Origin: Acaryochloris marina S15 | GTDB lineage: Bacteria > Cyanobacteriota > Cyanobacteriia > Thermosynechococcales > Thermosynechococcaceae | Direction: 5' to 3' | Length of the DNA stretch: 32,000 bases | Assembly: GCF_018336915.1 (NCBI RefSeq) | Contig: NZ_CP064923.1 | Span: 4,800,001 to 4,832,000 of the forward strand | Shown here: positions 1 through 24,890 of the stretch, one piece after another | Layout: each line of letters starts with the position of its first letter | Numbering within the stretch: position 1 is the first letter of the stretch | Program-made: the position numbers and the translations under genes | The notes under the pieces: generated by a model | Databases searched by the model: none | What the model saw: the letters and a program-made list of their open reading frames with translations, nothing else | Told to the model about the DNA's origin: nothing

Positions 1-176
1 GTCTGGTGTCCCCTTACTCACGTTTGAACACATTATTGCTTAGAATTTTGGAGTCCCAACCTATAGCTGACCCTGCTATGCTGGAATTATTGATCCAAAC
101 AGTAAGTCAAGCTCAAGCCTCAACTGATGCGTCTTGGGCCAGTGTTCAAGAGGTCAAACGAGTTTGGAGGCTTTGA
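1..176 (+). CDS. 3' end of an unidentified CDS entering from the left edge (partial)
   Basis: Frame 3 is open from the window edge to TGA at 174-176 (...LELLIQTVSQAQASTDASWASVQEVKRVWRL*). The stop shares its A with the ATG of the next ORF (TGATG). No family recognised. Confidence 0.3.
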   Translation, partial: LVSPYSRLNTLLLRILESQPIADPAMLELLIQTVSQAQASTDASWASVQEVKRVWRL

Positions 177-352
177 TGGCAGATAACAAAACAGCGATTC
201 CAAGCATTGAAGAAAGGCAACAGGCTCTTGAAATGCTAAGAGTGAGCAACCAACAGTTGGAACTCACCGCCATAGCATTAGACAAACTGATAACCACAGT
301 AGAGACAGGTCTAAGCCGACAATATCACCAGCGCGTGGAGAAAAGCCTCTAG
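176..352 (+). CDS. small hypothetical protein (58 aa from ATG 176; predicted helical)
   Basis: The ORF track gives 134..352 from a TTG. The ATG at 176 (MADNKTAIPSIEERQQALEMLRVSNQQLELTAIALDKLITTVETGL...) overlaps the upstream stop in TGATG, which suggests translational coupling. No family recognised. Confidence 0.35.
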   Translation: MADNKTAIPSIEERQQALEMLRVSNQQLELTAIALDKLITTVETGLSRQYHQRVEKSL

Positions 353-467
353 CAGCTCTACTTCCTAACAAGTTTGTCTCAGGGGCGCAGGTGGAATTTG
401 AAAAATCTCCATAGAGGGTGCGCATTGTTAATGCCGTACACTCCGTATAAGCGAGACACACTAAGGT

Positions 468-1007
468 CTAATAGTATTTTTCAGGGAAACCATAAAGCAG
501 TTCACTCGGATAGGCTGTATCAACTAGAAATTCAGAAACTTCGACATCAAATAATTGGCTGATCGAATACTTATCGAGGTATTCCTTGATTTGACTTGGA
601 TTTGAAAGATCGTAGTCATTGATGTATTGATCAACAATTTCACTGCGCAAAGAATGCAGCCATCTCTGAGGAAAATCACTGTCTAAGTCTGAATCAAAAA
701 AAGGAATTAATAAGAAGATAGGATCCAGCTTTTCTGAAGATTTACTCTGCAATATTGGCAGAGGTTGCAGAATACATATTCCTCTATTGATACGAGCATC
801 CGACCAATGTTCGAATTTCGGTAGTGGCGGGAAAAATCTACTAATCCCTGTGTCGCAGGCGGCTCGCCATTCAGCCATACCAGATGTATAGACTAACGTT
901 TTTTGATTGACTACATTTGTTAATGCCAGCTCTCTAAGTTGAGCGAGAGAGATAGGGCCTACAACTTCTTTGCCAACCATATAATGCCAAGCATCATTGT
1001 CGCTCAT
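468..1007 (-). CDS. GYF_2 (DUF4339-type) domain protein with an unrecognised C-terminal half
   Basis: The N-terminus WHYMVGKEVVGPISLAQLRELALTNVVNQKTLVYTSGMAEWRAA fits the bacterial GYF_2 pattern (W-y-y..G...GP.s..eL..l...g.i...tlVw..GM.eW..a). The rest is unrecognised. The locus is AT-richer than the surroundings. Confidence 0.6.
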   Translation of the reverse strand: MSDNDAWHYMVGKEVVGPISLAQLRELALTNVVNQKTLVYTSGMAEWRAACDTGISRFFPPLPKFEHWSDARINRGICILQPLPILQSKSSEKLDPIFLLIPFFDSDLDSDFPQRWLHSLRSEIVDQYINDYDLSNPSQIKEYLDKYSISQLFDVEVSEFLVDTAYPSELLYGFPEKYY

Positions 1008-1199
1008 ATCAGCATTTAATTGATTTTGGTAACAGCTTCACGAAGTGCCATCAAAGGTACGAATGGCTATCAGAAAAGTTCAATAAATCGCTCAAGTCTA
1101 AGCTTTCCTTGCACAGGATGAATTAGATAACGCAACAACAAAGAGTGACTTATAAAACTATAGGTGATCTCCCATCTACCCCAAACACATAGAAAATAT

Positions 1200-1715
1200 T
1201 TAGAACGTCACATACAGCCCACTCTGTCGCGCAAGGCAACTTCTGAGGAATGAAAGGTACTCTATCGTCAAGGAATTATCCGACTTAGATAGAAGTTCAA
1301 AGGACTGGCTTACCTCATCTGGTGATTGAAAATACGATCCCATTTTCCCTGGATCAAACGGATTGAAAGAAGGTCCAACGGTTTGACCCAACAGAGCGGC
1401 TTGGGATGAGTGAGTTAAACAATCGCCACAATCAAGCCATGCAGAACCGATACCAAAATCTTTGATTGGATCATAGAAGCGGGTAATCGCAAAATCTCCA
1501 AGTGTGTGAACATCATGAACATTTTCTACTTGTGTTCGCCAATCTAAATTGAGAGGTTCCCCTTCATATGGATCAACAAGGAATCGCACATTTTCTTCTA
1601 TGTATGAGTGCAGTGGAACTACATCATTTGATGCAAGAGCATTATGTAAAATCGTGAGAAAGTCAGTCTTAAAAAACTGCCAATCAAATTCGAAAGCTTT
1701 ATGCTCCATCGACAT
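1200..1715 (-). CDS. hypothetical protein, 171 aa, no recognised domain
   Basis: Clean 171-aa ORF with protein-like composition (MSMEHKAFEFDWQFFKTDFL...GLYVTF). It starts 16 nt after the GTTAACC core of the downstream attC-like element. AT-rich locus. Confidence 0.5.
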   Translation of the reverse strand: MSMEHKAFEFDWQFFKTDFLTILHNALASNDVVPLHSYIEENVRFLVDPYEGEPLNLDWRTQVENVHDVHTLGDFAITRFYDPIKDFGIGSAWLDCGDCLTHSSQAALLGQTVGPSFNPFDPGKMGSYFQSPDEVSQSFELLSKSDNSLTIEYLSFLRSCLARQSGLYVTF

Positions 1716-1731
1716 AAATCAAAGTTGGATC

Positions 1732-1821
1732 GGTTAACGCCCAAAATCACCGGGCCGCTGCTAGCGACGCTCCATTTAAATCTGACTGAATCGGCGGCTC
1801 CGGTGCATGTATTTGTTAGGC
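1732..1821 (-). mobile_element. attC-like imperfect palindrome 2 (3' of the tandem-TIR gene)
   Basis: Minus-strand read: GCCTAAC (7/7 to RYYYAAC, contains the TAA stop) - aaatacatg - CACCGGaGCCGC - 35-nt loop - GCGGCCCGGTG - attttgggc - GTTAACC (6/7 to GTTRRRY). The stem runs 1748-1758 against 1794-1805, 11 bp, with one bulged base (T1799 on the + strand). Homologous along its length to 2694-2794. Confidence 0.5.
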
Positions 1822-2667
1822 ATTTTTTACGCCGAGTGCAAAATCGAGTGCGCGCTGAAAACGGGATAAAGGGATTCCGTGCTCCGTTCGTTCTAAGTCA
1901 GACGAGTGATAGTTCAGCCAATGATATTTCTTCAACGCCTCTGGTGGTTCACAGTCTGTGTCCAACAAAACGGGAATAATGTAGATTTCGCCCTCTGGCA
2001 CCTCCTCTGCGACCTCAACGCTCTTGCGCAGTTCTTTTTGAAAGTAGCCGCGCTTAGCTATTGCATTGGAAGAGAGCAGCGGCATAAACACCTGAGATCG
2101 ACGAATAGCCCTTCGGATTTCAAGCCCCCAATCCTGGCCGGGAATTAATGACTCTTCGTCGAACCAGAGTCGGTATCCCATTATCTTGAGTTTTTCGTAA
2201 ATCGTACGGGCAATTTCCACGTCGACGCGCGAATAAGATAGGAAAATCTGGTCGGAGCTGCGCTGGTGCCGTTCTCCCAATTCATCCACGTGTCTAAGAA
2301 TCTCGTTGATCGCAGCATCTTCATCGCCATCAAAGTAAACAAGTCGTTCTCCAGCAAGATATTTCGGCGCACGGCTAACAAGCTTTTGTGTGGTGAGCAA
2401 GACGGTCCGATGGTCGTTGCCGTGACCAGTGAAAAAGGCAATCTCACTTGCCACATTTGCGTACCATGTGGTGTGCAAACCAACAGCAACCAATGTGTCG
2501 GCATTCCGAATTGCTTTCGCGACGTCATCATCAACGAACGAAAACTCGGAAAAATCGGCCCGGATTTGTTCACCAGCGATCGCTTGGTGTCCTGATTTTG
2601 TGATGCGCTGCGCAATCTTGAGAGCGAATTCCTTGTCGTAGTTGGTATGAGCGACGAAAACAATCAT
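1816..2667 (-). CDS. tandem TIR-domain protein (N-terminal degenerate TIR-like domain plus C-terminal canonical bacterial TIR_2 domain)
   Basis: The C-terminal half IFLSYSRVDVEIARTIYEKLKIMGYRLWFDEESLIPGQDWGLEIRRAIRRSQVFMPLLSSNAIAKRGYFQKELRKS...IIPVLLD is a textbook TIR_2 pattern. The N-terminal half MIVFVAHTNYDKEFALKIAQRI...AIRNADTLVAVGLHTTWYANVASEIAFF repeats the same layout (beta-A strand, then the S/E helix). Confidence 0.8.
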   Translation of the reverse strand: MIVFVAHTNYDKEFALKIAQRITKSGHQAIAGEQIRADFSEFSFVDDDVAKAIRNADTLVAVGLHTTWYANVASEIAFFTGHGNDHRTVLLTTQKLVSRAPKYLAGERLVYFDGDEDAAINEILRHVDELGERHQRSSDQIFLSYSRVDVEIARTIYEKLKIMGYRLWFDEESLIPGQDWGLEIRRAIRRSQVFMPLLSSNAIAKRGYFQKELRKSVEVAEEVPEGEIYIIPVLLDTDCEPPEALKKYHWLNYHSSDLERTEHGIPLSRFQRALDFALGVKNA

Positions 2668-2693
2668 CTGAATGCCTAAATATACTTATGAAT

Positions 2694-2794
2694 ACCTAAC
2701 GTCTGGCATAATCGGGCCGCCGCGATTGATGCTCTATTTGAAAACGTGTTGAAAACGTGCTGACGGGGGCTCCGCGTTCATGCCTTTGTTATGC
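2694..2794 (-). mobile_element. attC-like imperfect palindrome 1 (3' of the TIR-like/CHAT-like gene)
   Basis: Minus-strand read: GCATAAC (6/7 RYYYAAC, contains the TAA stop) - aaa - GGCATgAA - cg - CGGaGCC ... loop ... GGCCCG - a - TTATGCC - agac - GTTAGGT (7/7 GTTRRRY), ending 26 nt before the ATG of the next gene. Stems on the + strand are 2705-2711/2777-2784 (bulged C2779) and 2713-2718/2768-2774 (bulged T2771). Homologous to 1732-1821. Confidence 0.5.
2738..2759. repeat. perfect tandem duplication of an 11-mer (TTGAAAACGTG x2) in the loop of attC-like element 1
   Basis: 2738-2748 and 2749-2759 are identical. This block is the main length difference between the two attC-like elements. Confidence 0.9.
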
Positions 2795-3814
2795 GATATT
2801 GGAAAACATCTTGGGAGGCTCCTCATCGCTGTGGTCAATATTGAACTTGGCGACTCCGTTATCATATGCAGTCCGGTAGTCGCTGCTGTTACCAATTGCG
2901 GTGTAGAATCCACTGGTAAACACTGTGGCCCCTGCATCGGAGATGATTCCGGTCGCACCGATGGTGAATGGGACATCAGCGGACACACGCTCGGCCAATC
3001 CATCAGTTTCGCAGCACGAGAACAGGACGCATTCGAGCTTCTTTGCGAGCGGGCGAAGGAGCGCATGGAATAAATCGTAGCTCACAGCTTTAGTGGTACC
3101 ATCCGATGATTCAAACAGAAATCCGCCTGTCTCCGTGCCAGAGCACGACAAATGAAGGATTTCGGGATGGTGCAAAAGCAGTAATCGATCCAAGTCGTGG
3201 GCTTGCACGGCCCACTCTTGTTCAAGAACTATTTCACCAGATCGACGTGCAGATTCGAGTGCCCGCGTAATTCGCCGCACCTCACAATCCATTCGAAGCC
3301 GATTCTCGTCAATCGGATTGGCACAGAGCACCAGTACCTTTCGTGCGGCTTTCCGCTGACCCCAATTTTGTAATTCTTGCCGAATCGTGAAGCATGCGGG
3401 ACCGACCGCGGTCAATAAGTTTCCTTGGTCCGCACTGCGGTAAGCGGCAAAGGTCACACCATGGAGGTCACTGATAACGTCAGGCTTGGCACTTGCGTCG
3501 AAAACAGCAAATGTCCGTGAACGCCCGACGTGACCATAGAAAAGTCCAAGTTCAAAAAGAACGTTTCCGCGCGTAGTTCCGGTCTCCGCTCCGCGGCTAA
3601 CAAGAGTATCGTCGCTGCGAAGAACGAAAATGCCGTAGTCGAATTGCTTGACGGTGTCCACCAACGTCTCAAGATAGCCATGCGATAGACTGAATACACC
3701 TTCGTTCCAAAGGACGACCTCGGCGGCGTCAGCGAGTTGGTGTTGGATCGCTCTGGCAACATCAAGCCCTTCAGACGACGACCCAATGAAGACTCGTGGT
3801 TTTTGTATTGTCAT
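2789..3814 (-). CDS. fusion protein: N-terminal Cap12/PycTIR-type TIR-like domain (PF10137-like) plus C-terminal short CHAT/caspase-like domain
   Basis: From ATG 3814: MTIQKPRVFIGSSSEGLDVARAIQHQL...DYGIFVLRSDD...TRGNVLFELGLFYGHVGRSRTF...ISDLHGVT matches the 'VFIGSSSE ... RDNVLFELGLF.G.LGR.R.F ... PSDL.G' signature of the TIR-like nucleotide-binding family. The C-terminal KVLVLCANPIDENRLRMDCEVRRI...EWAVQAHDLDRLLLLHHPEILHLSCSG...LECVLFSCCET...FTIGATGIISDAGATVFTSGFYTAIG matches the 'ILFLAANP.D...L.LD.E.R.I...WA.R..DL...L....P.IVHFSGHG...CVVLN.CYS...VIGM...I.D.AA..F..GFY.ALG' CHAT-type pattern. I reject the 28-aa N-terminal extension in the ORF track (start 3898) because it lies outside the domain and reads as low-quality sequence. 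Confidence 0.75.
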   Translation of the reverse strand: MTIQKPRVFIGSSSEGLDVARAIQHQLADAAEVVLWNEGVFSLSHGYLETLVDTVKQFDYGIFVLRSDDTLVSRGAETGTTRGNVLFELGLFYGHVGRSRTFAVFDASAKPDVISDLHGVTFAAYRSADQGNLLTAVGPACFTIRQELQNWGQRKAARKVLVLCANPIDENRLRMDCEVRRITRALESARRSGEIVLEQEWAVQAHDLDRLLLLHHPEILHLSCSGTETGGFLFESSDGTTKAVSYDLFHALLRPLAKKLECVLFSCCETDGLAERVSADVPFTIGATGIISDAGATVFTSGFYTAIGNSSDYRTAYDNGVAKFNIDHSDEEPPKMFSNIA

Positions 3815-4464
3815 TTGTTCGATCGCATAACTATAATTAGCAGGCAAATTGCCTCTTAACACGAAAAAAAGAAGGGCTAGTTGTCGTCTCAAAGCCAAGC
3901 TATCTCTACATTAGCATCTCTGATACAAGGCCAAGCTTTACGGAAAATCGCCGATATGTAAAATCGATTCTGAATGCCTATATATAAGGCAGGAAAAGCG
4001 TTGCCAGTATATTGGCTATGCACCTATGAAGAATGTTAATAGGCAAAATAACCGTATAAGTTCCAATATCGGCTATTAACAGGCACTCTATGGCACCTAC
4101 CAACCCTCATAAACTTTTCGGCTAAGTTTGTGAGGTAATACGCGAGCCAAACATGACACTTACAGCACTGAGAAAAATTACATGCAGTGGATACGGTGCT
4201 TGATTCCCTTCCACAACGAAAGTCATCTCAAAGAAATGGCCGAACATGAAGTCGAAGCCTTTCTTACCCTCGATACAATAGTAAAAGTGCATAGGCATCC
4301 CATATTTAACGCTTAAGTGCTCAGCCCGCACTCAACCAATTGTCCCTCTTTAATCCATCGCTGACCATCACCATATGGTCATGACAGGCATTTCATTTAG
4401 AACTGCTCCAATCTCGAATAAAGGGTGCCTATATTGCTACCGCTCGTTTAGGAAGGTTGAAAAA

Positions 4465-5088
4465 ATGGATAGTAGTCATCCACTAGCCACTAGCCAGCGG
4501 CTCTCCTTTTTTACCTTAGCTGTACAAGCCTATCGCCAAGGCAAGCTAGGAGATGTTGCCGCTTATAAATCTGCAATATTAGGCACTAAAACTTATCCAG
4601 AAATTGCAGAAAAGCTCTCTAGATTGGCAACCTGCTTTCCTCACATTGATTTAGCAGCCTTAAGAAGGCTACCAGAAGGAACCTTTGGACAGATCTATGC
4701 CCAGCATATGGATGAATTCCATCTAACGCCATTGGAGATTAGCCCAGACGTCATCGCTCAATTGTCAGATCAATCTTTGGGACTGCGCTATACCCTCCTC
4801 CATGATGTGTTTCATGTGCTGTTAGGGTATGACACCAGCTTGGTCGGAGAAATGGGGGTGTGGGCCTTTGTCGATGCCCAGCAGTATAGTCCTAGCTATC
4901 AGACAGCAGCCTGGTTAGCCCATTACTTATATCCCTTCGTCATTCCGCACCGATACCGCCAACTACGTGCTATCGAGCAGCAAAGTCGTCAACTTGGACA
5001 GCAAGCAGCCTGCATCATCGCTCAACCCCTCGAAGACTATTGGTCAGAACCCCTCTCTATGGTTCGATCGCGCCTAGGGTTGGCATAA
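4465..5088 (+). CDS. Coq4-family protein
   Basis: LRYTLLHDVFHVLLGYDTSLVGEMGVWAF fits the Coq4 family motif (HD..H.L.G....-.GE). The ATG at 4465 is preceded by GGAAGG about 9 nt upstream. The ORF-track start at 4375 adds a Cys-rich, unlikely leader. Confidence 0.6.
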   Translation: MDSSHPLATSQRLSFFTLAVQAYRQGKLGDVAAYKSAILGTKTYPEIAEKLSRLATCFPHIDLAALRRLPEGTFGQIYAQHMDEFHLTPLEISPDVIAQLSDQSLGLRYTLLHDVFHVLLGYDTSLVGEMGVWAFVDAQQYSPSYQTAAWLAHYLYPFVIPHRYRQLRAIEQQSRQLGQQAACIIAQPLEDYWSEPLSMVRSRLGLA

Positions 5089-5169
5089 AGACTTCAACCC
5101 TAGAGAAGCTGGGTTGCTTCCAGGGGGTAAGAATTCTAAACCTCAAAGTTTTGAGATTTTAATGCGCCA

Positions 5170-6690
5170 CTAATCCCAGGAGTCATCCGTTTTGACGGGA
5201 GCACGACCGTAGGTGTCAGTGAGTTGCAGTAACCGTTCTGCGATCGCATCCGTCAATCCACCCGAACGATACCGCCAAGCCCAGTTCCCCCCCGACGTGC
5301 TGGGTAAGTTCATGCGGGCCTCGGTCCCTAACCCCAGCAAATCTTGCACCGGGATAATCACCTGGTTGGCAACGGAACTCAAAGCCAGTCGCATTAAATC
5401 CCAGTGAATGCCTTCCTCTGAAAAACCGCCCATATAGCCTTCCACAAACACCCGCTCATGGTCAGGCATATCTTGAAACCAGCCCACTGTCGTGTTGTTG
5501 TCGTGGGTGCCGGTATAAACCAGGCAATTCTGCACATGGTTAAAGGGCAGGTACGGATTGCCAGAACCAGAGCCAAAAGCGAAGTGGAGAATCTTCATGC
5601 CGGGAAATTCAAACTTATCCCGCAGCTCTTCCACATCGGGGGTAATGATGCCCAAGTCCTCGGCCAGTATCGGCAGATTGCCCAGTTCATCTCTGAGGGC
5701 TTCGAATAGCTCATCTCCAGGAGCTTTGATCCACTCTCCGTTCATGGCAGTGGTTTCCCCTTGCTTGACCTGCCAAAAGGCTCGAAAGCCCCGGAAGTGA
5801 TCCACACGGATCAGATCCACATAGTCCAGCATGGTGCGGAAACGCTGAATCCACCATTTGAAGCCTTGATGTTTCATCCGCTCCCATTGGTAAATGGGAT
5901 TACCCCATAGCTGCCCCGTATCACTAAAATAATCTGGTGGCACCCCAGCCATCAGCGCCGGTTCGCCTGTTGCTGGATCTAAGAAAAATTGTTCAGGATT
6001 GGCCCAAACATCTGCACTATTGTGAGCCACATAAATGGGAATATCACCAATAATCTGAATGCCGTTATCGTTGGCATACTTTTTCAAATTAGACCATTGC
6101 TGAAAAAACTGAAACTGCCAAAACTTATGCATCTCCACATCAGACTGCAGCTTTTGTCGCCAATGGGCCATGGCAGCGGGTTGCCGTTGGGCAATCTCTT
6201 GGGGCCAAGTATTCCAAGCAGCCCCCCAATGGGCATCTTTGAGGGCCATAAATAAGGCCAGATCTTCTAACCAGACCCGAGTTTGACAAAAATCTCGAAA
6301 GGCGACGGCGAGTTCTGGAAAGACCCCAGCCTTAAAGTTGTCATAGGCCCGCCGCAGCAGACCGAGCTTCATGGGGAGAACCTGCTCGTAGGCAATCGTC
6401 TCGGGTCGAAAGCCGACCCCTAGCTCTAGGTCTTCTTCTTGCAGCAATTCCTGCTCTTGCAGTTGCTCAAGACTAATTAATAAGGGATTGCCCGCCATGG
6501 CTGAGTAGCACATATAGGGAGAGTTACCGAACCCCGTTGGCCCCAAAGGCAATACCTGCCAAAGTTGCTGACCACTCTTGGCCATAAAATCAACAAATCG
6601 GTAGGCTTCTGGCCCTAAATCACCGACTCCAAATCGACCAGGGAAAGACGTAGGATGCAGGAGAAGGCCACTAGCTCGGGGGAAGGGCAT
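5170..6690 (-). CDS. malQ: 4-alpha-glucanotransferase (amylomaltase)
   Basis: Full-length 506-aa match to the MalQ/disproportionating-enzyme pattern (MPFPRASGLLLHPTSFPGRFGVGDLG..., IIGDIPIYVAHNSADVW, GVPPDYFS.TGQLWGNP, YTGTHDN.T..GW). Confidence 0.95.
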   Translation of the reverse strand: MPFPRASGLLLHPTSFPGRFGVGDLGPEAYRFVDFMAKSGQQLWQVLPLGPTGFGNSPYMCYSAMAGNPLLISLEQLQEQELLQEEDLELGVGFRPETIAYEQVLPMKLGLLRRAYDNFKAGVFPELAVAFRDFCQTRVWLEDLALFMALKDAHWGAAWNTWPQEIAQRQPAAMAHWRQKLQSDVEMHKFWQFQFFQQWSNLKKYANDNGIQIIGDIPIYVAHNSADVWANPEQFFLDPATGEPALMAGVPPDYFSDTGQLWGNPIYQWERMKHQGFKWWIQRFRTMLDYVDLIRVDHFRGFRAFWQVKQGETTAMNGEWIKAPGDELFEALRDELGNLPILAEDLGIITPDVEELRDKFEFPGMKILHFAFGSGSGNPYLPFNHVQNCLVYTGTHDNNTTVGWFQDMPDHERVFVEGYMGGFSEEGIHWDLMRLALSSVANQVIIPVQDLLGLGTEARMNLPSTSGGNWAWRYRSGGLTDAIAERLLQLTDTYGRAPVKTDDSWD

Positions 6691-8326: not shown

Positions 8327-8521
8327 ATGGATGGCGGCCGAGTTCAGGATGCTGGTGAAACCCCCATTCATATTCAAAACCTTTTCTTGAGTCAAGGCTC
8401 TCTACGATATCTCCACCCATGGGAAGAGAGCTTGCAAGGTATTGGCCTTAATCCGGGCTTTGTCCCCACAAAAACGTTGAGGCTGATCCATGAAAACAGC
8501 AGCATTTTAGATGAACGCTAG
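8327..8521 (+). CDS. hypothetical small protein (64 aa), doubtful
   Basis: Only ORF evidence. No family and no clear RBS. Confidence 0.2.
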   Translation: MDGGRVQDAGETPIHIQNLFLSQGSLRYLHPWEESLQGIGLNPGFVPTKTLRLIHENSSILDER

Positions 8522-8786
8522 CACCAGCGATTGATGTGATCCTTCGATGATGTCGGACAACGAAGATATCCGTCCAACAGATAGAAGACCAGGAGATGGC
8601 TAGTCAGCTCAAACTTTAACGAAAGCCCACCAGGCGAAGCGCATCTGTTTAGGTGACACATTGCCCATCAAATATTTACGCATGTCATCCGCAAGAATGG
8701 AGACAGTCTCGCAATCGGCGGTGCCAGTAAACTGATGTCTCGATACTGGATTGAATTAGGGCCACTCCTGAGGCAGCGAGCGGTCG

Positions 8787-9335
8787 CTATGGTGCAATAA
8801 CGCCAAAAGTTTTCAGGGTCGGGCGCATTGCTGTGATTTCATCCCGGTGGGCAATGACGGTAAGTAGGGTTTGGGGCTCTGCGTCAGCAGTCGAGGACTC
8901 CACCGATTCGACTTTGAGTCTAACCTGCTCTGGCCGTTGCGCTCTTTGCCAGTAGAACCAGCCTGCTATCGGTGAGATGACAGTTATCACCGTAAAGCCT
9001 AACCCCACAGCGGGAAAGAGAATGCTAAACACTAGGCTTAAGCAGAGGGTTGCCGTTAGCATCAGAGCCGTTAGGAAACAGGCCATCACAACGCTGGGCC
9101 GTACCATCCCTTCAAAGGTGACTTGATCCAACTCTTTGTCCAGGGCTGCTAGCCGATAGGACCGATTCGTCAGGTGGTCTTCGACTTTTTTCAGCACCGT
9201 TTCTTCTGGCTGGGTAGACAGCCATTGCAACTCCTCAATGCGATCTTTCACCGAGGCACGAATGAAGAAGAACAACCCCACCATCAGCAATAAGGTCAGC
9301 AGAAAGGTTGAGGGTAAAACAAAGGAGCGCATCAT
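8787..9335 (-). CDS. membrane protein, possibly CCB1-family (cofactor assembly of complex C subunit B)
   Basis: An N-terminal TM helix is followed by FFIRASVKDRIE, a motif I associate with the CCB1/DUF3529 family. There is a central double TM segment. The family assignment is from memory only. Confidence 0.5.
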   Translation of the reverse strand: MMRSFVLPSTFLLTLLLMVGLFFFIRASVKDRIEELQWLSTQPEETVLKKVEDHLTNRSYRLAALDKELDQVTFEGMVRPSVVMACFLTALMLTATLCLSLVFSILFPAVGLGFTVITVISPIAGWFYWQRAQRPEQVRLKVESVESSTADAEPQTLLTVIAHRDEITAMRPTLKTFGVIAP

Positions 9336-11591: not shown

Positions 11592-12175
11592 TCCAGGGTG
11601 TGGCAATGTTGAATCATATCTGGGAAAAATTGCGAAAAGTCCTGGGTAAAGGTGGGGTAATGGGCCATCCAATCTTCCATGGCAGGACATAAATCCACAG
11701 AACGTTGCCAACGGTGGCTGATTCTACGAGATAAGCGAGACAAGGTATTTTCGATGCCCTCAATGGTCTGGTATTGGGTCAGCCAATCTTCCGTAGCTAT
11801 CCGATCTAAAAGAGCGTGAATCTCTGCCGGTAGCCAGCCAGAATAGCGTTCAAATGAACGGTAGACATCGTGTGTAAACGTTGCCAATGGCACATCACTA
11901 TACTCTGACCAATGACAAGCTAAGTGGTGATCGTAAAAGATATCCACCAAGATACCTGCCATGCGGCGATGGGCAGGACTGATCAGACGTTTGCTATGGC
12001 GAACCACCGAATGTCGATCCGTAAAACTATCAATCTGTTGATGGTGTTTCATTCCGGCCTGCATCTCCACGGAGAACTCCTGGCGGACCGTCCCTTTAAT
12101 GAAGTCTGCGAGTAAGTTGCCTAGTCGATGTTCAACCGTCGGCTGAGCCAGGTAGAGATGGGCTAAAAAGTTCAT
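11588..12175 (-). CDS. acpH: acyl carrier protein phosphodiesterase (AcpH family)
   Basis: The start MNFLAHLYLAQ...GNLLADFIKG is the characteristic AcpH N-terminus, so the 48-aa upstream extension in the ORF track is rejected. Its ATG overlaps the stop of the upstream kinase gene (ATGA at 12172-12175). Its stop overlaps the fur stop by 4 nt. Confidence 0.85.
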   Translation of the reverse strand: MNFLAHLYLAQPTVEHRLGNLLADFIKGTVRQEFSVEMQAGMKHHQQIDSFTDRHSVVRHSKRLISPAHRRMAGILVDIFYDHHLACHWSEYSDVPLATFTHDVYRSFERYSGWLPAEIHALLDRIATEDWLTQYQTIEGIENTLSRLSRRISHRWQRSVDLCPAMEDWMAHYPTFTQDFSQFFPDMIQHCHTLD

Positions 12176-13242
12176 GCAAGAGGGGTGTCCCAATACCGGC
12201 GAGCCGGTTGATAAATATCGCCTAAGGTGTGATCTGCATTCACTGTAATCACCAGATCTGCTCCGGTTTCCTGAGTGGACAACGGTTTTACAAATAGCTC
12301 TGGATGCAGCGCTTTCCAAAAGTAATCCACAAATTCATCGATTTCCCCATCACTCATCCCGGCGTTACCAGATGCGATCGCTTTATGTTCTGCTTCTTTC
12401 CGCCACTGCTTACTGAGATGGTAATCCGCTAAGTTCAGCACCATCAAACGATCGAGACGGTCCCACAACGGCAAATAGTCCTGCAGACGTTGATTCATCT
12501 CCACCGCGAACTGGCAATCTACTGCCGTATCAATGGGGGAAGGGGCTTGCTCAAAGACATCAGGTGGAATGGGTTGTGCCCCCACAAACCAGCCCTCAAA
12601 CAACACAATATCGGCATTCGGCACCCTCTCAAAACCACTACGATCGCCCTGCCCCCCATAGGCCGACTTATCAAACCGAGGCACTTGCAGGTGAGTATCA
12701 GCCTCATTTGCTCGCACCTGATCCAAAAGTTGAATACCTAAACCGACATCATGGGTTCCCGGTGGTCCTCGCCATTTCAGTCGAGGATCTTCTACCTGCA
12801 GCTGTTGGCGATCGCCATAGGTCTTATAAAGATCATCAATGGAAAGACAGCAACATGAGTAGCCTAGCTGCTCAAGAAGGATCTGCAGCACCGTGGTCAG
12901 GGTCGTTTTTCCAGCCCCTTGCATCCCCAAAATGCCTTGAATCAAAGGGCGATTGAGTTTACGTCTAGCCTCTGCCAGCTGCAAAGCTAACGGCATCCAT
13001 ACCCGCCAGAGGGTCTGTAGCGGTGAAGTGGAAATTTGACAGTCTCCGCACCAAAACTCCTCCACCTGGGGATAGATCCGGGGGAGGAGCTGGGCAAACT
13101 GGTGAATCGTTGCTTCTACCGACCCTGGAGTCAGGCCAAAAGCTGCTGACCGATCTGGTTCAGACAACATCCATTCGCCTAATTCAGCAGTTTGATGTTT
13201 AGTCAGTGCCTTCCCTTGAACCAGTTGCTCTAAACTGTCCAT
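12172..13242 (-). CDS. D-glycerate 3-kinase (plant/cyanobacterial GLYK-type P-loop kinase)
   Basis: P-loop GMQGAGKTTL, then SIDDLYKT, WRGPPGTHD, VPRFDKSAYGGQGDR, LFEGW, GMSDGEIDEFV. All are colinear with the GLYK family. Confidence 0.8.
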   Translation of the reverse strand: MDSLEQLVQGKALTKHQTAELGEWMLSEPDRSAAFGLTPGSVEATIHQFAQLLPRIYPQVEEFWCGDCQISTSPLQTLWRVWMPLALQLAEARRKLNRPLIQGILGMQGAGKTTLTTVLQILLEQLGYSCCCLSIDDLYKTYGDRQQLQVEDPRLKWRGPPGTHDVGLGIQLLDQVRANEADTHLQVPRFDKSAYGGQGDRSGFERVPNADIVLFEGWFVGAQPIPPDVFEQAPSPIDTAVDCQFAVEMNQRLQDYLPLWDRLDRLMVLNLADYHLSKQWRKEAEHKAIASGNAGMSDGEIDEFVDYFWKALHPELFVKPLSTQETGADLVITVNADHTLGDIYQPARRYWDTPLA

Positions 13243-22786: not shown

Positions 22787-24733
22787 CTATTCTTCTGCTG
22801 TGGGATCAAGAATGACCGGTCGAGAAAGTTCGCCATCCGGATCCGGGGCATAGGTTTCAGCAGGCGGCGGTGCTGCCGGTGGAGCTTGCCGCTGGACTGG
22901 AGCGGGTTCTGGGTCATATCGAGGTTCTGGGTCATATCGAGGCTCGGGCTCATACCGAGGTTCTTCTCGACGTCGGCGAGAAGCATAAATCGCATCCCGT
23001 TCGGCAGCCCAAGCCGCAATCTTATCCTGCGCATCATAATAGAGGGCTCTACCATAACCAATCTGGGAGGCAGTTGCGATCGCATCCGACAAACGACCAT
23101 TCCGGGCTAAGGCATTTGCTTCATTGAGAATGGGGCGATCTTCAACGGATTGAATGTCAGCGACCCAAGCGTAAATATCGTCTTGAGCTTCTCTATGGAG
23201 CGACCGTCCAGATTCAATTTGTTCAGCGGTTTTGATGGCATCATTTAACTTACCAGCCTTAGCTAGCTGACGAGCCTCATCCAGAATTGGCTGATCTTCC
23301 ACCTTTTCAATGGATCCTTCCCATTCCTGCATCAGAGTTTGGGCTTCATCCCGTAACGGATTACCAAACTCCACTTTCCGCGCTTCCAAAATTGCAGCTT
23401 GGAACCCTGCCGTCGTCTTTTGAGTTGCAAATTGACGAGCCCGAGCCAATACCTGACGATCTTGGAAGGTATTGATCTGTTGATTCCATTGGGCAATCAA
23501 AGTTTGGGCCTGAATCCGACCCGGCTTCTCCGTATCAATCAAGGCCGCATGATCCATCGCCAACTGATAGGTATGAACGTTATCGACATTGGCAAAGAAT
23601 TTCGCCAAATGGAGCTGGCCAGTATTTTGAATTTTTTGCTCCCAGGCGTCAACGCGATCGCGATTTTTTTCAAACAAGTCACTCTTGCGATCAATCTGCT
23701 CCGCTAAAGTCCACGCATGGATATAGCTATAGAAATCATCCTCCTCAACCGTCGCCTCAGCCCGACTCAGCTGCACTAAGGTCGTTGCGTTCTTAGCCGC
23801 TTTAGTATTGGGGGGAATCCGTTGTGCAGCCGCAATAGCCTTTTCAAACTGGCCATACTCTTGGTGCTCTTCTGACAAGTCAAGGAGCTTCTGGCTCCAC
23901 TTTTCAATATTCTTTTGAACTTCTTCTTTCGCAAGGCGCTTAGGATCAATTTTGCTAGCCAGTTGAATCGCTTCGGATAAGTCCTTAGCACGACCATAGG
24001 CGGCTATATCTTGAGCTTTATACAGATCCTGAAAGGCTTTTTTCTCAATCGCCATATCCCCCAGGATTTTATCGGCTTGATCTTGCCAATAGCCGTCTCC
24101 CAATTGGACTAAAGACCGAACCTGCAGGGCAGCCTGAGTCCAATCCTGCTTTTTAATCGCCTTGCGAGCATTTTCTAAGGACTCTTCACCCAATTCCCAG
24201 TTGGCTTCCCAGCGCTTAATTAAGCGTTTGGACTCGGGTTGAATACTGCTGGCTGCAGGTACTTCCTTCGCCAGACTAATCGCTTCTTTCAGATTACCTT
24301 TAGCGATTTCTTGGCGGGCTAGCCCCAACATAGAGCGAGACCATTCATCTGATAGCAGGGAAACCCGTGGATATAACGGATGTTCTGCATCCCATTTATC
24401 AGCAATGGCTAGAGCCGCTTTGACATCTTTGACATTACCTTTACGGGCCAACTGATCAGCGCATTCTAGCTGTTCTGCTTCAGACAGAGTTGCGGCAATC
24501 TGCTTACAGTTCGGTGACGGCGGCAGACTGGACAACCATTGCAAGGCCGTAGCGCCTGTCACCCAAGACACAACAATGGTGATCAACCAGGGCCACCCTT
24601 TGAAAGTTACAATTTTGCCCAAGGTATTTTGGACCTTCTGGAGTTTGGGATTTTGCCCAGGGTCAGGCAGCTCGGATCCTTGTCCAGGCTCCAGAGAAGG
24701 AGGGTTACTGTCAGCGGGTTGGTTACTCGTCAT
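22787..24733 (-). CDS. membrane-anchored helical-repeat protein of unknown function with a C-terminal Pro-rich tail
   Basis: 648 aa from ATG 24733. There is one TM helix (WPWLITIVVSWVTGATALQWL). It is followed by many degenerate repeats of about 35-40 aa of the type A...I..W.......D..IL.EA..LA..G.L..AI..A..I. The tail reads EPRYEPEPRYDPEPRYDPEPAP...PPAAPPP. Confidence 0.7.
   Translation of the reverse strand: MTSNQPADSNPPSLEPGQGSELPDPGQNPKLQKVQNTLGKIVTFKGWPWLITIVVSWVTGATALQWLSSLPPSPNCKQIAATLSEAEQLECADQLARKGNVKDVKAALAIADKWDAEHPLYPRVSLLSDEWSRSMLGLARQEIAKGNLKEAISLAKEVPAASSIQPESKRLIKRWEANWELGEESLENARKAIKKQDWTQAALQVRSLVQLGDGYWQDQADKILGDMAIEKKAFQDLYKAQDIAAYGRAKDLSEAIQLASKIDPKRLAKEEVQKNIEKWSQKLLDLSEEHQEYGQFEKAIAAAQRIPPNTKAAKNATTLVQLSRAEATVEEDDFYSYIHAWTLAEQIDRKSDLFEKNRDRVDAWEQKIQNTGQLHLAKFFANVDNVHTYQLAMDHAALIDTEKPGRIQAQTLIAQWNQQINTFQDRQVLARARQFATQKTTAGFQAAILEARKVEFGNPLRDEAQTLMQEWEGSIEKVEDQPILDEARQLAKAGKLNDAIKTAEQIESGRSLHREAQDDIYAWVADIQSVEDRPILNEANALARNGRLSDAIATASQIGYGRALYYDAQDKIAAWAAERDAIYASRRRREEPRYEPEPRYDPEPRYDPEPAPVQRQAPPAAPPPAETYAPDPDGELSRPVILDPTAEE
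22905..22958. repeat. in-frame 18-bp tandem repeat (2 perfect units plus 1 unit with 4 mismatches) encoding PRY[ED]PE x3
   Basis: GGTTCTGGGTCATATCGA occurs at 22905-22922 and 22923-22940. GGCTCGGGCTCATACCGA is at 22941-22958. A partial fourth unit follows. Confidence 0.9.
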
Positions 24734-24890
24734 ATCCTCAGGACTAAAGCAGAAAATCACACAGAGACTTGCTCAACATTATTTGTAAATAATTTGTTCT
24801 ATCCTGCACATCCCTAATATGGAGGTCTGGCAGAAACAAGCCTCATGTAGATAATAGGCTAGAAAACTGAGAATTGACAGTTCAGCAAAA

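Follow-up and report, generated by a model that had tools for sequence, protein, structure and literature searches.

Two adjacent TIR-domain genes of Acaryochloris marina are very probably separate integron cassettes, one of which joins a Cap12-type TIR to a CHAT fold with a broken catalytic dyad

Bacterial TIR domains are hydrolases or cyclases of nicotinamide adenine dinucleotide (NAD+). Among the described systems closest to the locus presented here, streamlined antiphage systems are encoded by integron cassettes (bioRxiv 10.1101/2024.07.02.601686, 10.1101/2024.07.02.601719), type IV Thoeris combines a short TIR protein with a caspase-like protease that is activated by N7-cyclic ADP-ribose (N7-cADPR) and requires its catalytic Cys (bioRxiv 10.1101/2024.10.24.620036), and SAVED-CHAT, a type III-B CRISPR-associated protease, has a catalytic dyad formed by His375 and Cys422 (bioRxiv 10.1101/2023.06.23.546230). 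Here, we describe two adjacent genes, A and B, on the minus strand of a 32,000-nucleotide stretch of Acaryochloris marina S15 (contig NZ_CP064923.1, positions 4,800,001 to 4,832,000), which we refer to as the window. Gene A encodes a Cap12/PycTIR-type TIR domain joined to a CHAT/caspase fold whose catalytic dyad is broken, while gene B encodes a TIR_2 domain preceded by a possible second TIR-type domain. Judging from sequence layout, both genes are very probably integron cassettes, with attC-like sites of their own, in a decayed chromosomal integron. The reading that we favor, with a confidence slightly better than even, is that the two cassettes are independent and that each is a self-contained abortive infection gene acting through NAD+ hydrolysis by its TIR. 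Compact antiphage integron cassettes are already known, as are integrons, clusters of attC sites lacking integrases (CALINs) and intI pseudogenes in cyanobacteria and elsewhere; what is unusual in A is the pseudo-protease that serves as the partner domain of its TIR. An earlier note on this DNA overlooked both the integron context and the broken dyad.

Gene A (2789-3814, minus strand, with its ATG at 3814) encodes a protein of 341 residues, in which a TIR domain (residues 1-155, 3350-3814) precedes the CHAT fold (residues 156-341, 2792-3349). Gene B (1816-2667, minus strand) encodes 283 residues and is separated from A by 121 bp (2668-2788). These coordinates, the layout and the gap agree with the earlier note, which had described A as a Cap12/PycTIR-type TIR plus a CHAT-like domain, a description that profile searches, PADLOC and Foldseek all support. 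Each protein is 100% identical, over the same length, to an NCBI protein of Acaryochloris marina. As for the TIR domain of A, residues 7-125 match the Pfam family PF10137 (CAP12-PCTIR_TIR) with an E-value (E) of 2.3e-26 and 92.6 bits, for a cut-off of 24.7, and the PADLOC models for CBASS TIR effectors and PycTIR match with E 4.6e-43 and 7e-33, respectively. A profile of the A family finds the solved structures of Cap12/TIR-STING and PycTIR at E 1e-28 to 1e-22, and in the profile alignment to these chains the glutamate motif of A is aligned with "NVVFEFGLFLG" of Cap12. The entry titles of the matched Cap12/TIR-STING structures describe filament or fiber assemblies bound to c-di-GMP. The predicted catalytic Glu88 (codon 3551-3553) is invariant in the A family (11/11 sequences); it had been singled out in the earlier note together with Glu212 of B, invariant in its own family as well, and the codon coordinates given for both were right. 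These families, for which we collected 11 (A) and seven (B) sequences, mostly on short contigs, are both very rare. A genome scan with the A family found zero relatives, and a metagenome scan found two partial TIR-only loci and nothing more.

As for the C-terminal half of A, the window protein by itself falls below the threshold of Pfam CHAT (PF12770). The A family profile nevertheless matches the CHAT domain of SAVED-CHAT (Protein Data Bank entry 8tl0) with E 1.2e-19, and a Foldseek search with the AlphaFold model of A returns 8tl0 first (E 1e-14), followed by gingipain R and caspase-4/-11. The domain proper covers residues 159-339, and the predicted local distance difference test score (pLDDT) of the modeled domain is about 90. 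An exhaustive HMMER search with this domain retrieved 9883 representative relatives; a word-indexed homologue search with the C-terminal half alone came back empty, which, given the HMMER result, we put down to the sensitivity of the index. Pfam CHAT is present in 118 of the 119 closest representative relatives that were scanned, and the partner domains found among the relatives include EAD7, EAD10, TRADD-like N, TPR, NB-ARC and TIR_2. SAVED-CHAT is the closest solved relative of the C-terminal domain of A. When the two are aligned residue by residue, however, His375 and Cys422 of SAVED-CHAT fall on Ser225 (codon 3140-3142) and Cys268 (codon 3011-3013) of A, so that the position of the catalytic His is occupied by a Ser. 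None of the 11 A family members has an intact His/Cys dyad. Eight window-like sequences have Ser, Gln, Met or Pro at the His position, seven of them keeping the Cys, while P0009, P0010 and P0013 keep the His and have Asp or Gly at the Cys position. Two subclades of the A family have thus lost different dyad residues. Among wider relatives, both residues are found in 146 of 184 best domain matches (79%). SAVED-CHAT cleaves PCaspase. In A, a TIR stands in place of SAVED.

The loss of the dyad is not accompanied by free decay. Between A and its closest homologue (79% identity, locus L001), the non-synonymous divergence (dN) is 0.205 in the CHAT-fold domain and 0.07 in the TIR domain; synonymous sites are saturated, which precludes a dN/dS ratio, and dN alone is given. 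With its non-synonymous change constrained and its fold modeled at a pLDDT of about 90, the CHAT-fold domain of A is conserved. Because the dyad is broken throughout the family and yet non-synonymous change is constrained, the domain would be conserved in a non-catalytic role, probably that of a sensor or scaffold for the TIR NADase. The combination of TIR and CHAT in one protein is not unique to A within the genus. The pREB7 plasmid of strain MBIC11017 (L015, NC_009932.1) encodes at 4995-6092 a protein of 365 residues (WP_012168259.1) that also fuses CHAT, 36% identical to that of A, to a TIR. In contrast to A, its domain order is reversed, its TIR is a TIR_2 rather than PF10137, its dyad is intact (SGHG / NGC), and, rather than being a cassette on its own, it lies between the genes of an NB-ARC protein of 1293 residues and of a TPR protein, in a neighborhood resembling those of conflict systems with STAND (signal transduction ATPases with numerous domains) NTPases. 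Neither "TIR-CHAT" nor "CHAT-TIR" occurs as a term in the literature that we searched.

Both genes lie outside the cyclic oligonucleotide-based antiphage signaling system (CBASS), the pyrimidine cyclase system for antiphage resistance (Pycsar), Thoeris types I, II and IV, the short prokaryotic Argonaute system SPARTA, and SAVED-CHAT, a defining feature of each being absent. The TIR of A is of the same subtype, PF10137, as those of the CBASS effector Cap12 (TIR-STING, TIR-SAVED) and of PycTIR, with which it shares the motif "...NV.FE.G.F.G". The analogy predicts an NADase that oligomerization switches on. Unlike in CBASS, it is fused to a CHAT fold rather than to a STING or SAVED sensor, and there is no CD-NTase gene. 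Unlike in Pycsar, there is no cyclase in the window and no domain binding cyclic nucleotide monophosphates in the protein, the PycTIR models covering only the TIR of A. Thoeris I and II differ in that ThsB models match B weakly (E 1e-4 and weaker) and in that the window has no SIR2, SLOG or Macro gene. We looked for partner genes with Pfam on all other window open reading frames (ORFs) of at least 110 codons, and with PADLOC and NCBIfam on the immediate neighbors of A and B. Pfam found no CD-NTase, pyrimidine cyclase, ThsA (SIR2/SLOG/Macro), STING or SAVED in these ORFs of the 32-kb window, and PADLOC and NCBIfam found zero partner genes among the immediate neighbors, which bears out the earlier note's claim that the window holds no canonical partner.

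These observations bear on the possibility that A is an orphan or spare effector, driven by a nucleotide signal from a CBASS, Pycsar or type III CRISPR system encoded at another place in the genome. Such a role would fit the effector type of its TIR and the fact that its closest solved CHAT relative is a protease activated by cyclic oligoadenylate. In SAVED-CHAT, however, the ligand is held by SAVED and not by CHAT, and A has no SAVED, STING, CARF or cyclic nucleotide-binding domain. The NCBIfam Cap12 models also cover only the first ~130 residues of A, scoring 121 bits against an equivalog cut-off of 450, and the window has no signal synthase. We therefore regard this explanation as improbable. 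Single-gene candidates are matched as well: A matches the PADLOC candidate PDC-S35 (E 1.4e-8) and B matches PDC-S66 (E 7.6e-8), each through its TIR part only. The PDC-S66 model has 282 positions and, as in the 283-residue B, its TIR is C-terminal. To our knowledge, PDC-S35 and PDC-S66 are themselves uncharacterized.

As for B, its TIR_2 domain (residues 136-283) is firmly assigned, residues 141-256 matching Pfam TIR_2 with E 4.5e-31, and it contains the predicted catalytic Glu212 (2032-2034). Among solved structures, it comes closest to the TIRs of SPARTA TIR-APAZ, SARM1 and AbTir. A SPARTA-type assignment was considered and rejected: B has no APAZ, and no Ago gene is present among the window ORFs. 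The N-terminal domain of B (residues 1-135), which the earlier note had called TIR-like, is less certain. PF10137 matches these 135 residues of the window protein with E 0.21 only, while four of the seven B family members match it, the best with E 2e-5. When this domain is aligned to the TIR of A using hhalign (P 6e-4), NVASEIAFFTGH of B lies over NVLFELGLFYGH of A, the motif "NV..E....F.GH" is in register between the two, and Glu75 of B (2443-2445) pairs with Glu88 of A. The predicted model of B shows a confident beta/alpha alternation in this domain, and both Glu75 and Glu212 are invariant across the family alignment (n = 7). The third TIR-type domain of the locus is thus weakly supported and is the weakest part of the original observation.

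Each of the two genes ends in an attC-like site whose R'' box overlaps the stop codon. Both end in GC[A/C]TAAC, in which TAA is the stop, and a GTTAGGT or GTTAACC is found ~90-100 nt further on. The attC-like site of cassette A (2694-2794, minus strand) has GCATAAC as R'' and GTTAGGT as R', and that of cassette B (1732-1821, minus strand) has GCCTAAC as R'' and GTTAACC as R', with a stem of 11 bp and one bulged A. The predicted cassette limits are 2700-3829 for A, the first cassette, and 1738-2699 for B, the second. Cassette A starts with TTATGC, which is the complement of its own R'' GCATAA at six of six positions, and cassette B with TTAGGT, the complement of its own R'' GCCTAA at five of six. 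In 64 kb (both strands) there are five candidate RYYYAAC/GTTRRRY pairs, two of which overlap the stops of A and B on the sense strand; by our positional estimate, it is very unlikely that two of five would fall there by chance. The sites also resemble one another and a site that follows an unrelated gene of 211 codons in the related locus L010. The site of A aligns to the L010 site with a score of 91 (null 15.6 +/- 2.6, z 29), the sites of A and B align to each other with z 7.4, and the site of B aligns to that of L010 with z 8.7. In 2000 dinucleotide shuffles, which make up the null, none reached the observed score in any of the three pairs. Another RYYYAAC...GTTRRRY candidate, with a stable fold (-31 kcal/mol), lies at 5020-5119 on the plus strand, where it runs over the end of the oppositely oriented Coq4-like gene (3' side); such candidates are equally frequent in shuffles, and it is probably a chance occurrence.

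Upstream of A, and divergent from the cassettes, lies a remnant of an integrase gene (intI; 4143-4274, plus strand) that consists of ~44 N-terminal codons reading RAKHDTYSTEKNYMQWIRCLIPFHNESHLKEMAEHEVEAFLTLD, the rest being deleted. Its translation matches PF13495 (E 2.4e-10), and its best NCBIfam match is TIGR02249, integron integrase (E 1.2e-7). For comparison, we used four related loci, L010-L013, which are those of MBIC11017 (L011) and of three metagenome-assembled genomes retrieved via the neighboring Coq4-like gene. The Coq4-like, MalQ, DAO and CCB1 genes are conserved in all four, and so is the remnant (up to E 6e-15), for which TIGR02249 is the best family match in four genomes. The truncation after "EAFL" is common to the window, L010, L011 and L012 (four of five genomes), and in comparison with L013 it amounts to a deletion of ~160 bp. 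Remnant and cassettes occupy opposite strands, the cassette ORFs pointing away from intI. Between the conserved flank and the first cassette is an attI-like core, GTTATGC (3825-3831, minus strand). The five Acaryochloris genomes are identical through ...TAATTATAGTTA / ...CTAATTATAGTTA and unrelated directly after, and their cores at this junction are GTTATGC, GTTATGC, GTTAGAC, GTTAGAT and GTTATAC, all of the GTTRRRY type. The point at which they diverge is G|TT, the position cut in integron recombination. At the other end, sequence shared with L012 and L013 starts again at window positions 427 and 441. There, a terminal attC-like site (CATTAAC ... GTTAGGA; 363-433, minus strand) marks the left boundary of the variable region; it lies within the conserved flank and is itself conserved in L013. 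Its sequence is unlike that of either cassette site, and the call is based on boxes and position only.

What lies between these edges differs from genome to genome. None of the four related Acaryochloris genomes has A, B or either of the two genes to their left, and the first cassettes differ in all five, including the four that share the intI truncation. In MBIC11017 (L011, NC_009925.1), the first cassette (8415-8999) is a lone ThsB-type TIR of 194 residues (PF08937, E 1.6e-16), which is followed by HigB/helix-turn-helix (HTH) genes and insertion sequence elements. The platform of L010 carries the gene of 211 codons, of unknown function, and then GmrSD_N (DUF262) and S-adenosylmethionine methyltransferase genes (495-1895 and 1822-2514), and that of L012 carries a GNAT gene. 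Since genomes with the same truncation carry different first cassettes, cassette turnover presumably continued after the integrase was lost, via an integrase acting in trans or via transformation and homologous exchange. The G+C content is ~0.50 in cassettes A and B vs. ~0.41-0.42 at window positions 1-1500. A promoter-like site that reads into the first cassette (TTAAGA, 18 nt, TATAGT; 3830-3859, minus strand) is a candidate equivalent of the integron cassette promoter (Pc); it matches nine of 12 consensus positions and is largely conserved in the five genomes, such sites being no commoner in the region than in shuffles.

Could the locus instead be an ordinary genomic island or recombination hot spot, in which the attC-like elements are an unrelated Acaryochloris repeat? 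Neither the energies nor the folding statistics of the two sites stand out, there are only two or three sites, and the integrase remnant is short, at ~44 codons, all of which an island would accommodate. It would not explain why the best family of the remnant is integron integrase in four genomes, why the breakpoint of five genomes falls on a GTTRRRY-type core, why a repeat bounded by RYYYAAC and GTTRRRY runs over stop codons and is found behind three unrelated genes, or why A homologues in other places belong to same-strand arrays in which attC-like sites were recognized by eye. An island of this kind is hence doubtful, at about the level that we assign to the orphan effector. The locus does resemble the defense cassettes described in sedentary chromosomal and mobile integrons, BRiCs, and CALINs or pseudo-integrons: co-directional ORFs, 10-33 nt from boundary to start, an imperfect RYYYAAC...GTTRRRY palindrome after each ORF, insertion at a conserved G|TT core next to intI, and strain-specific cargo that is rich in defense and toxin genes, with compact single-gene versions of larger systems. 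It differs from them in its very short array, its cyanobacterial host, an integrase reduced to a ~44-codon remnant that related genomes share, and sites that are attC-like by sequence layout. The term "TIR" is absent from the text of one of the defense-cassette preprints (10.1101/2024.07.02.601686).

The contexts of homologues bear on how A and B come to be neighbors. In three metagenomic loci (L001, L005 and L006), A homologues lie in same-strand arrays in which GC-rich sites with an attC layout, such as GCCTAAC...GGCCGCCCCTCACCTGCGCCGTTAGGT with two bulged bases, follow the A homologue and, in L001 and L006, precede it as well. Their neighbors in these arrays are Mrr, HEPN_AbiU2, a TIR_2 protein and unknown genes, and in L001, which has the closest homologue, other cassettes are present on either side. 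In a fourth locus (L002), the A homologue has HigB/HTH and HEPN genes among its neighbors, on both strands. A and B family genes were not adjacent in any of the nine other loci examined. By tblastn, the A relatives in L001, L002, L005 and L006 have no B family gene alongside, and the B relatives in L003, L004 and L007 have no A family gene; likewise, the gene tables of three further B family contigs list no PF10137 or CHAT neighbor. Because each gene has its own attC-like site, the two families do not co-occur in these loci, and other genes occupy the platform in relatives, the adjacency of A and B is best supported as cassette stacking and not as a cooperating pair. More generally, adjacency inside cassette arrays is not to be read as evidence of an operon or of a functional system.

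The nearest two-gene analogue is nonetheless type IV Thoeris, in which a TIR_2 protein likewise stands beside a protein of the caspase superfamily in one orientation. In a pair of this kind, the TIR_2 of B would make an ADP-ribose-derived signal that is bound by the caspase fold of A and switches on the TIR of A. In favor of such a pair, A and B are neighbors on one strand with a gap of 121 bp and are probably transcribed together, the known system has a TIR_2/ThsB and a caspase-like protein within one gene of each other (bioRxiv 10.1101/2024.10.24.620036), B has an invariant predicted catalytic Glu, and an A family locus, L005, has a TIR_2 gene two cassettes off. Against these points, A and B have separate attC-like sites and cassette boundaries, their pairing is not conserved in any other locus examined, and the closest A homologue is flanked by other cassettes. 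The TIR_2 protein of L005 is not a B orthologue, since it has 343 residues, 32% identity over the TIR only, and an attC of its own. Finally, type IV Thoeris needs the caspase Cys and has a separate C-terminal domain proposed to be signal-binding, whereas in A the dyad is broken, a domain of that kind is missing, and the protein carries its own TIR as an output. We consider a Thoeris-like pair very unlikely. Of the two readings in the earlier note, independent single-gene cassettes and a Thoeris-like pair, the first is thus supported by the cassette anatomy and the lack of A/B adjacency elsewhere, while the second, and with it the idea of a two-gene module, is not supported, given the absence of co-occurrence in nine loci, the broken dyad, and the other genes found at this site in four relatives. 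What stands of the undescribed NAD-based defense module proposed there is a pair of rare single-gene TIR cassettes, and what falls is the new two-gene module.

If the cassettes are independent, as we favor, the array would start with the intI remnant and the attI-like junction, continue with cassettes A and B, each followed by its attC, and then reach a strain-specific unit, A and B having arrived separately. The two genes are probably co-transcribed from the attI-side promoter (the TTAAGA-18-TATAGT element), and A may occupy the best-expressed first position, by analogy with position effects in integrons. The Cap12-type TIR of A, with Glu88, would stay inactive until the CHAT fold senses an infection cue; the likeliest cue would be a protein or peptide that occupies what used to be the substrate groove. 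Acting as a non-catalytic receptor or oligomerization scaffold, the CHAT fold would then gather the TIRs into an active oligomer, leading to NAD+ depletion. In B, the TIR_2 (Glu212) may be regulated or completed in cis by the N-terminal TIR-like domain (Glu75). A bolder and more tentative reading, which we hold as a joint possibility well short of even, has two parts. A would be a new single-chain immune receptor in which a catalysis-dead caspase-superfamily domain (cf. cFLIP) gates a Cap12-type TIR NADase without a nucleotide messenger, all in a 1.1-kb cassette, and the platform would have swapped its first-position cassettes, mostly of defense or toxin types, after an ancestral truncation of the integrase, pointing to mobilization in trans.

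It is also conceivable that A and B have no role in defense, being addictive or toxic cargo that stabilizes the array in the manner of toxin-antitoxin cassettes, or functionless recent passengers. The integrase of the platform is dead, arrays at the platform carry HigB/HTH genes of the toxin-antitoxin type, and both families are very rare, with a defense role deduced from homology. On the other hand, neither ORF is broken or shortened in comparison with homologues of as little as ~40% identity, and the predicted catalytic Glu residues are invariant, both domains of A are under non-synonymous constraint, the neighbors of homologues are predominantly of defense types, and neither cassette contains an antitoxin-like partner. 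A non-defense role is accordingly unlikely, if somewhat less so than the other alternatives considered above.

Several points weigh against independent, self-contained defense cassettes. The NADase activity, toxicity and phage defense of A and B are deduced from homology and context, as are the trigger, oligomerization and promoter use proposed above. The AlphaFold model of the TIR of A is of moderate confidence (pLDDT 50-88), and a non-canonical active site made up of Cys268 and the invariant residues Cys224 and His221 is conceivable in the CHAT fold. Regarding the attC-like sites, an energy-only scan performed no better on the real sequence than on shuffles (three strong candidates vs. 2.25 expected), and it was dropped as evidence in favor of position, repeat similarity and comparative junctions. 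The single-strand folding z of both sites is weak (-0.27 to -1.23), and no consensus came out of RNAalifold when ten attC sites of other loci were crudely aligned by their arms alone, which left the bulges out of register. With the integrase of the platform dead, any movement of the cassettes today would depend on an integrase supplied in trans. Co-occurrence was judged from a limited sample of contigs retrieved by exact-protein look-ups, and one of these, L005, does hold its unrelated TIR_2 cassette two genes from the A homologue.

Were A and B each sufficient for protection against cyanophages, the known TIR-based immune genes would gain two very compact members. A would then show that a Cap12-type NADase can be controlled by a protease-dead CHAT instead of a cyclic-nucleotide sensor, and would offer a tractable model for pseudo-caspases as receptors. 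The locus would extend the concept of integrons as defense biobanks from Vibrio and clinical integrons to a marine cyanobacterium, and the five genomes that share one platform with different first cassettes, including another lone TIR, form a natural comparison set.

To the left of cassette B lies a third strain-specific unit (468-1715, minus strand), which comprises a gene of 171 codons (1200-1715) and a GYF_2 gene of 179 codons (468-1007). The former has no family match, neither has a PADLOC match, and no attC-like site was seen between them, which makes the membership of this unit in the array uncertain. The other window ORFs of at least 110 codons encode, according to Pfam, housekeeping functions only: MalQ, a DAO-family oxidase, CCB1, a sigma factor, Fur, AcpH, glycogen phosphorylase, MsrB, ClpB, NDH subunits and others. 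Two ORFs, of 356 (12172-13242, minus strand) and 657 (22787-24760, minus strand) codons, have no Pfam family or a sub-threshold match (PknG_TPR, E 2.5e-5). An operon-internal regulatory RNA and a tRNA-linked island were both rejected, the window having zero Rfam families and zero tRNAs. An 18-nt direct repeat, TCTGAATGCCTA[A/T]ATATA, occurs at 2667-2684, abutting the start codon of B, and at 3969-3986, ~155 nt upstream of the start of A in the conserved attI-side flank, with 17 of 18 positions equal; it was rejected as a shared regulatory site, its core TAGGCATTCAGA being absent from all 14 related loci compared. Between the intI remnant and the Coq4-like gene, L010 (3941-4519) and L011 (9493-10071) have an ORF of 192 codons starting ...LTQPIDHLWSVADYHRMVEAG. 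The LTQPIDHLWSVADYHRMVEAG peptide is fused in frame to the Coq4-like ORF in L012, and only a short stretch of it is left in the window, at ~4275-4400.

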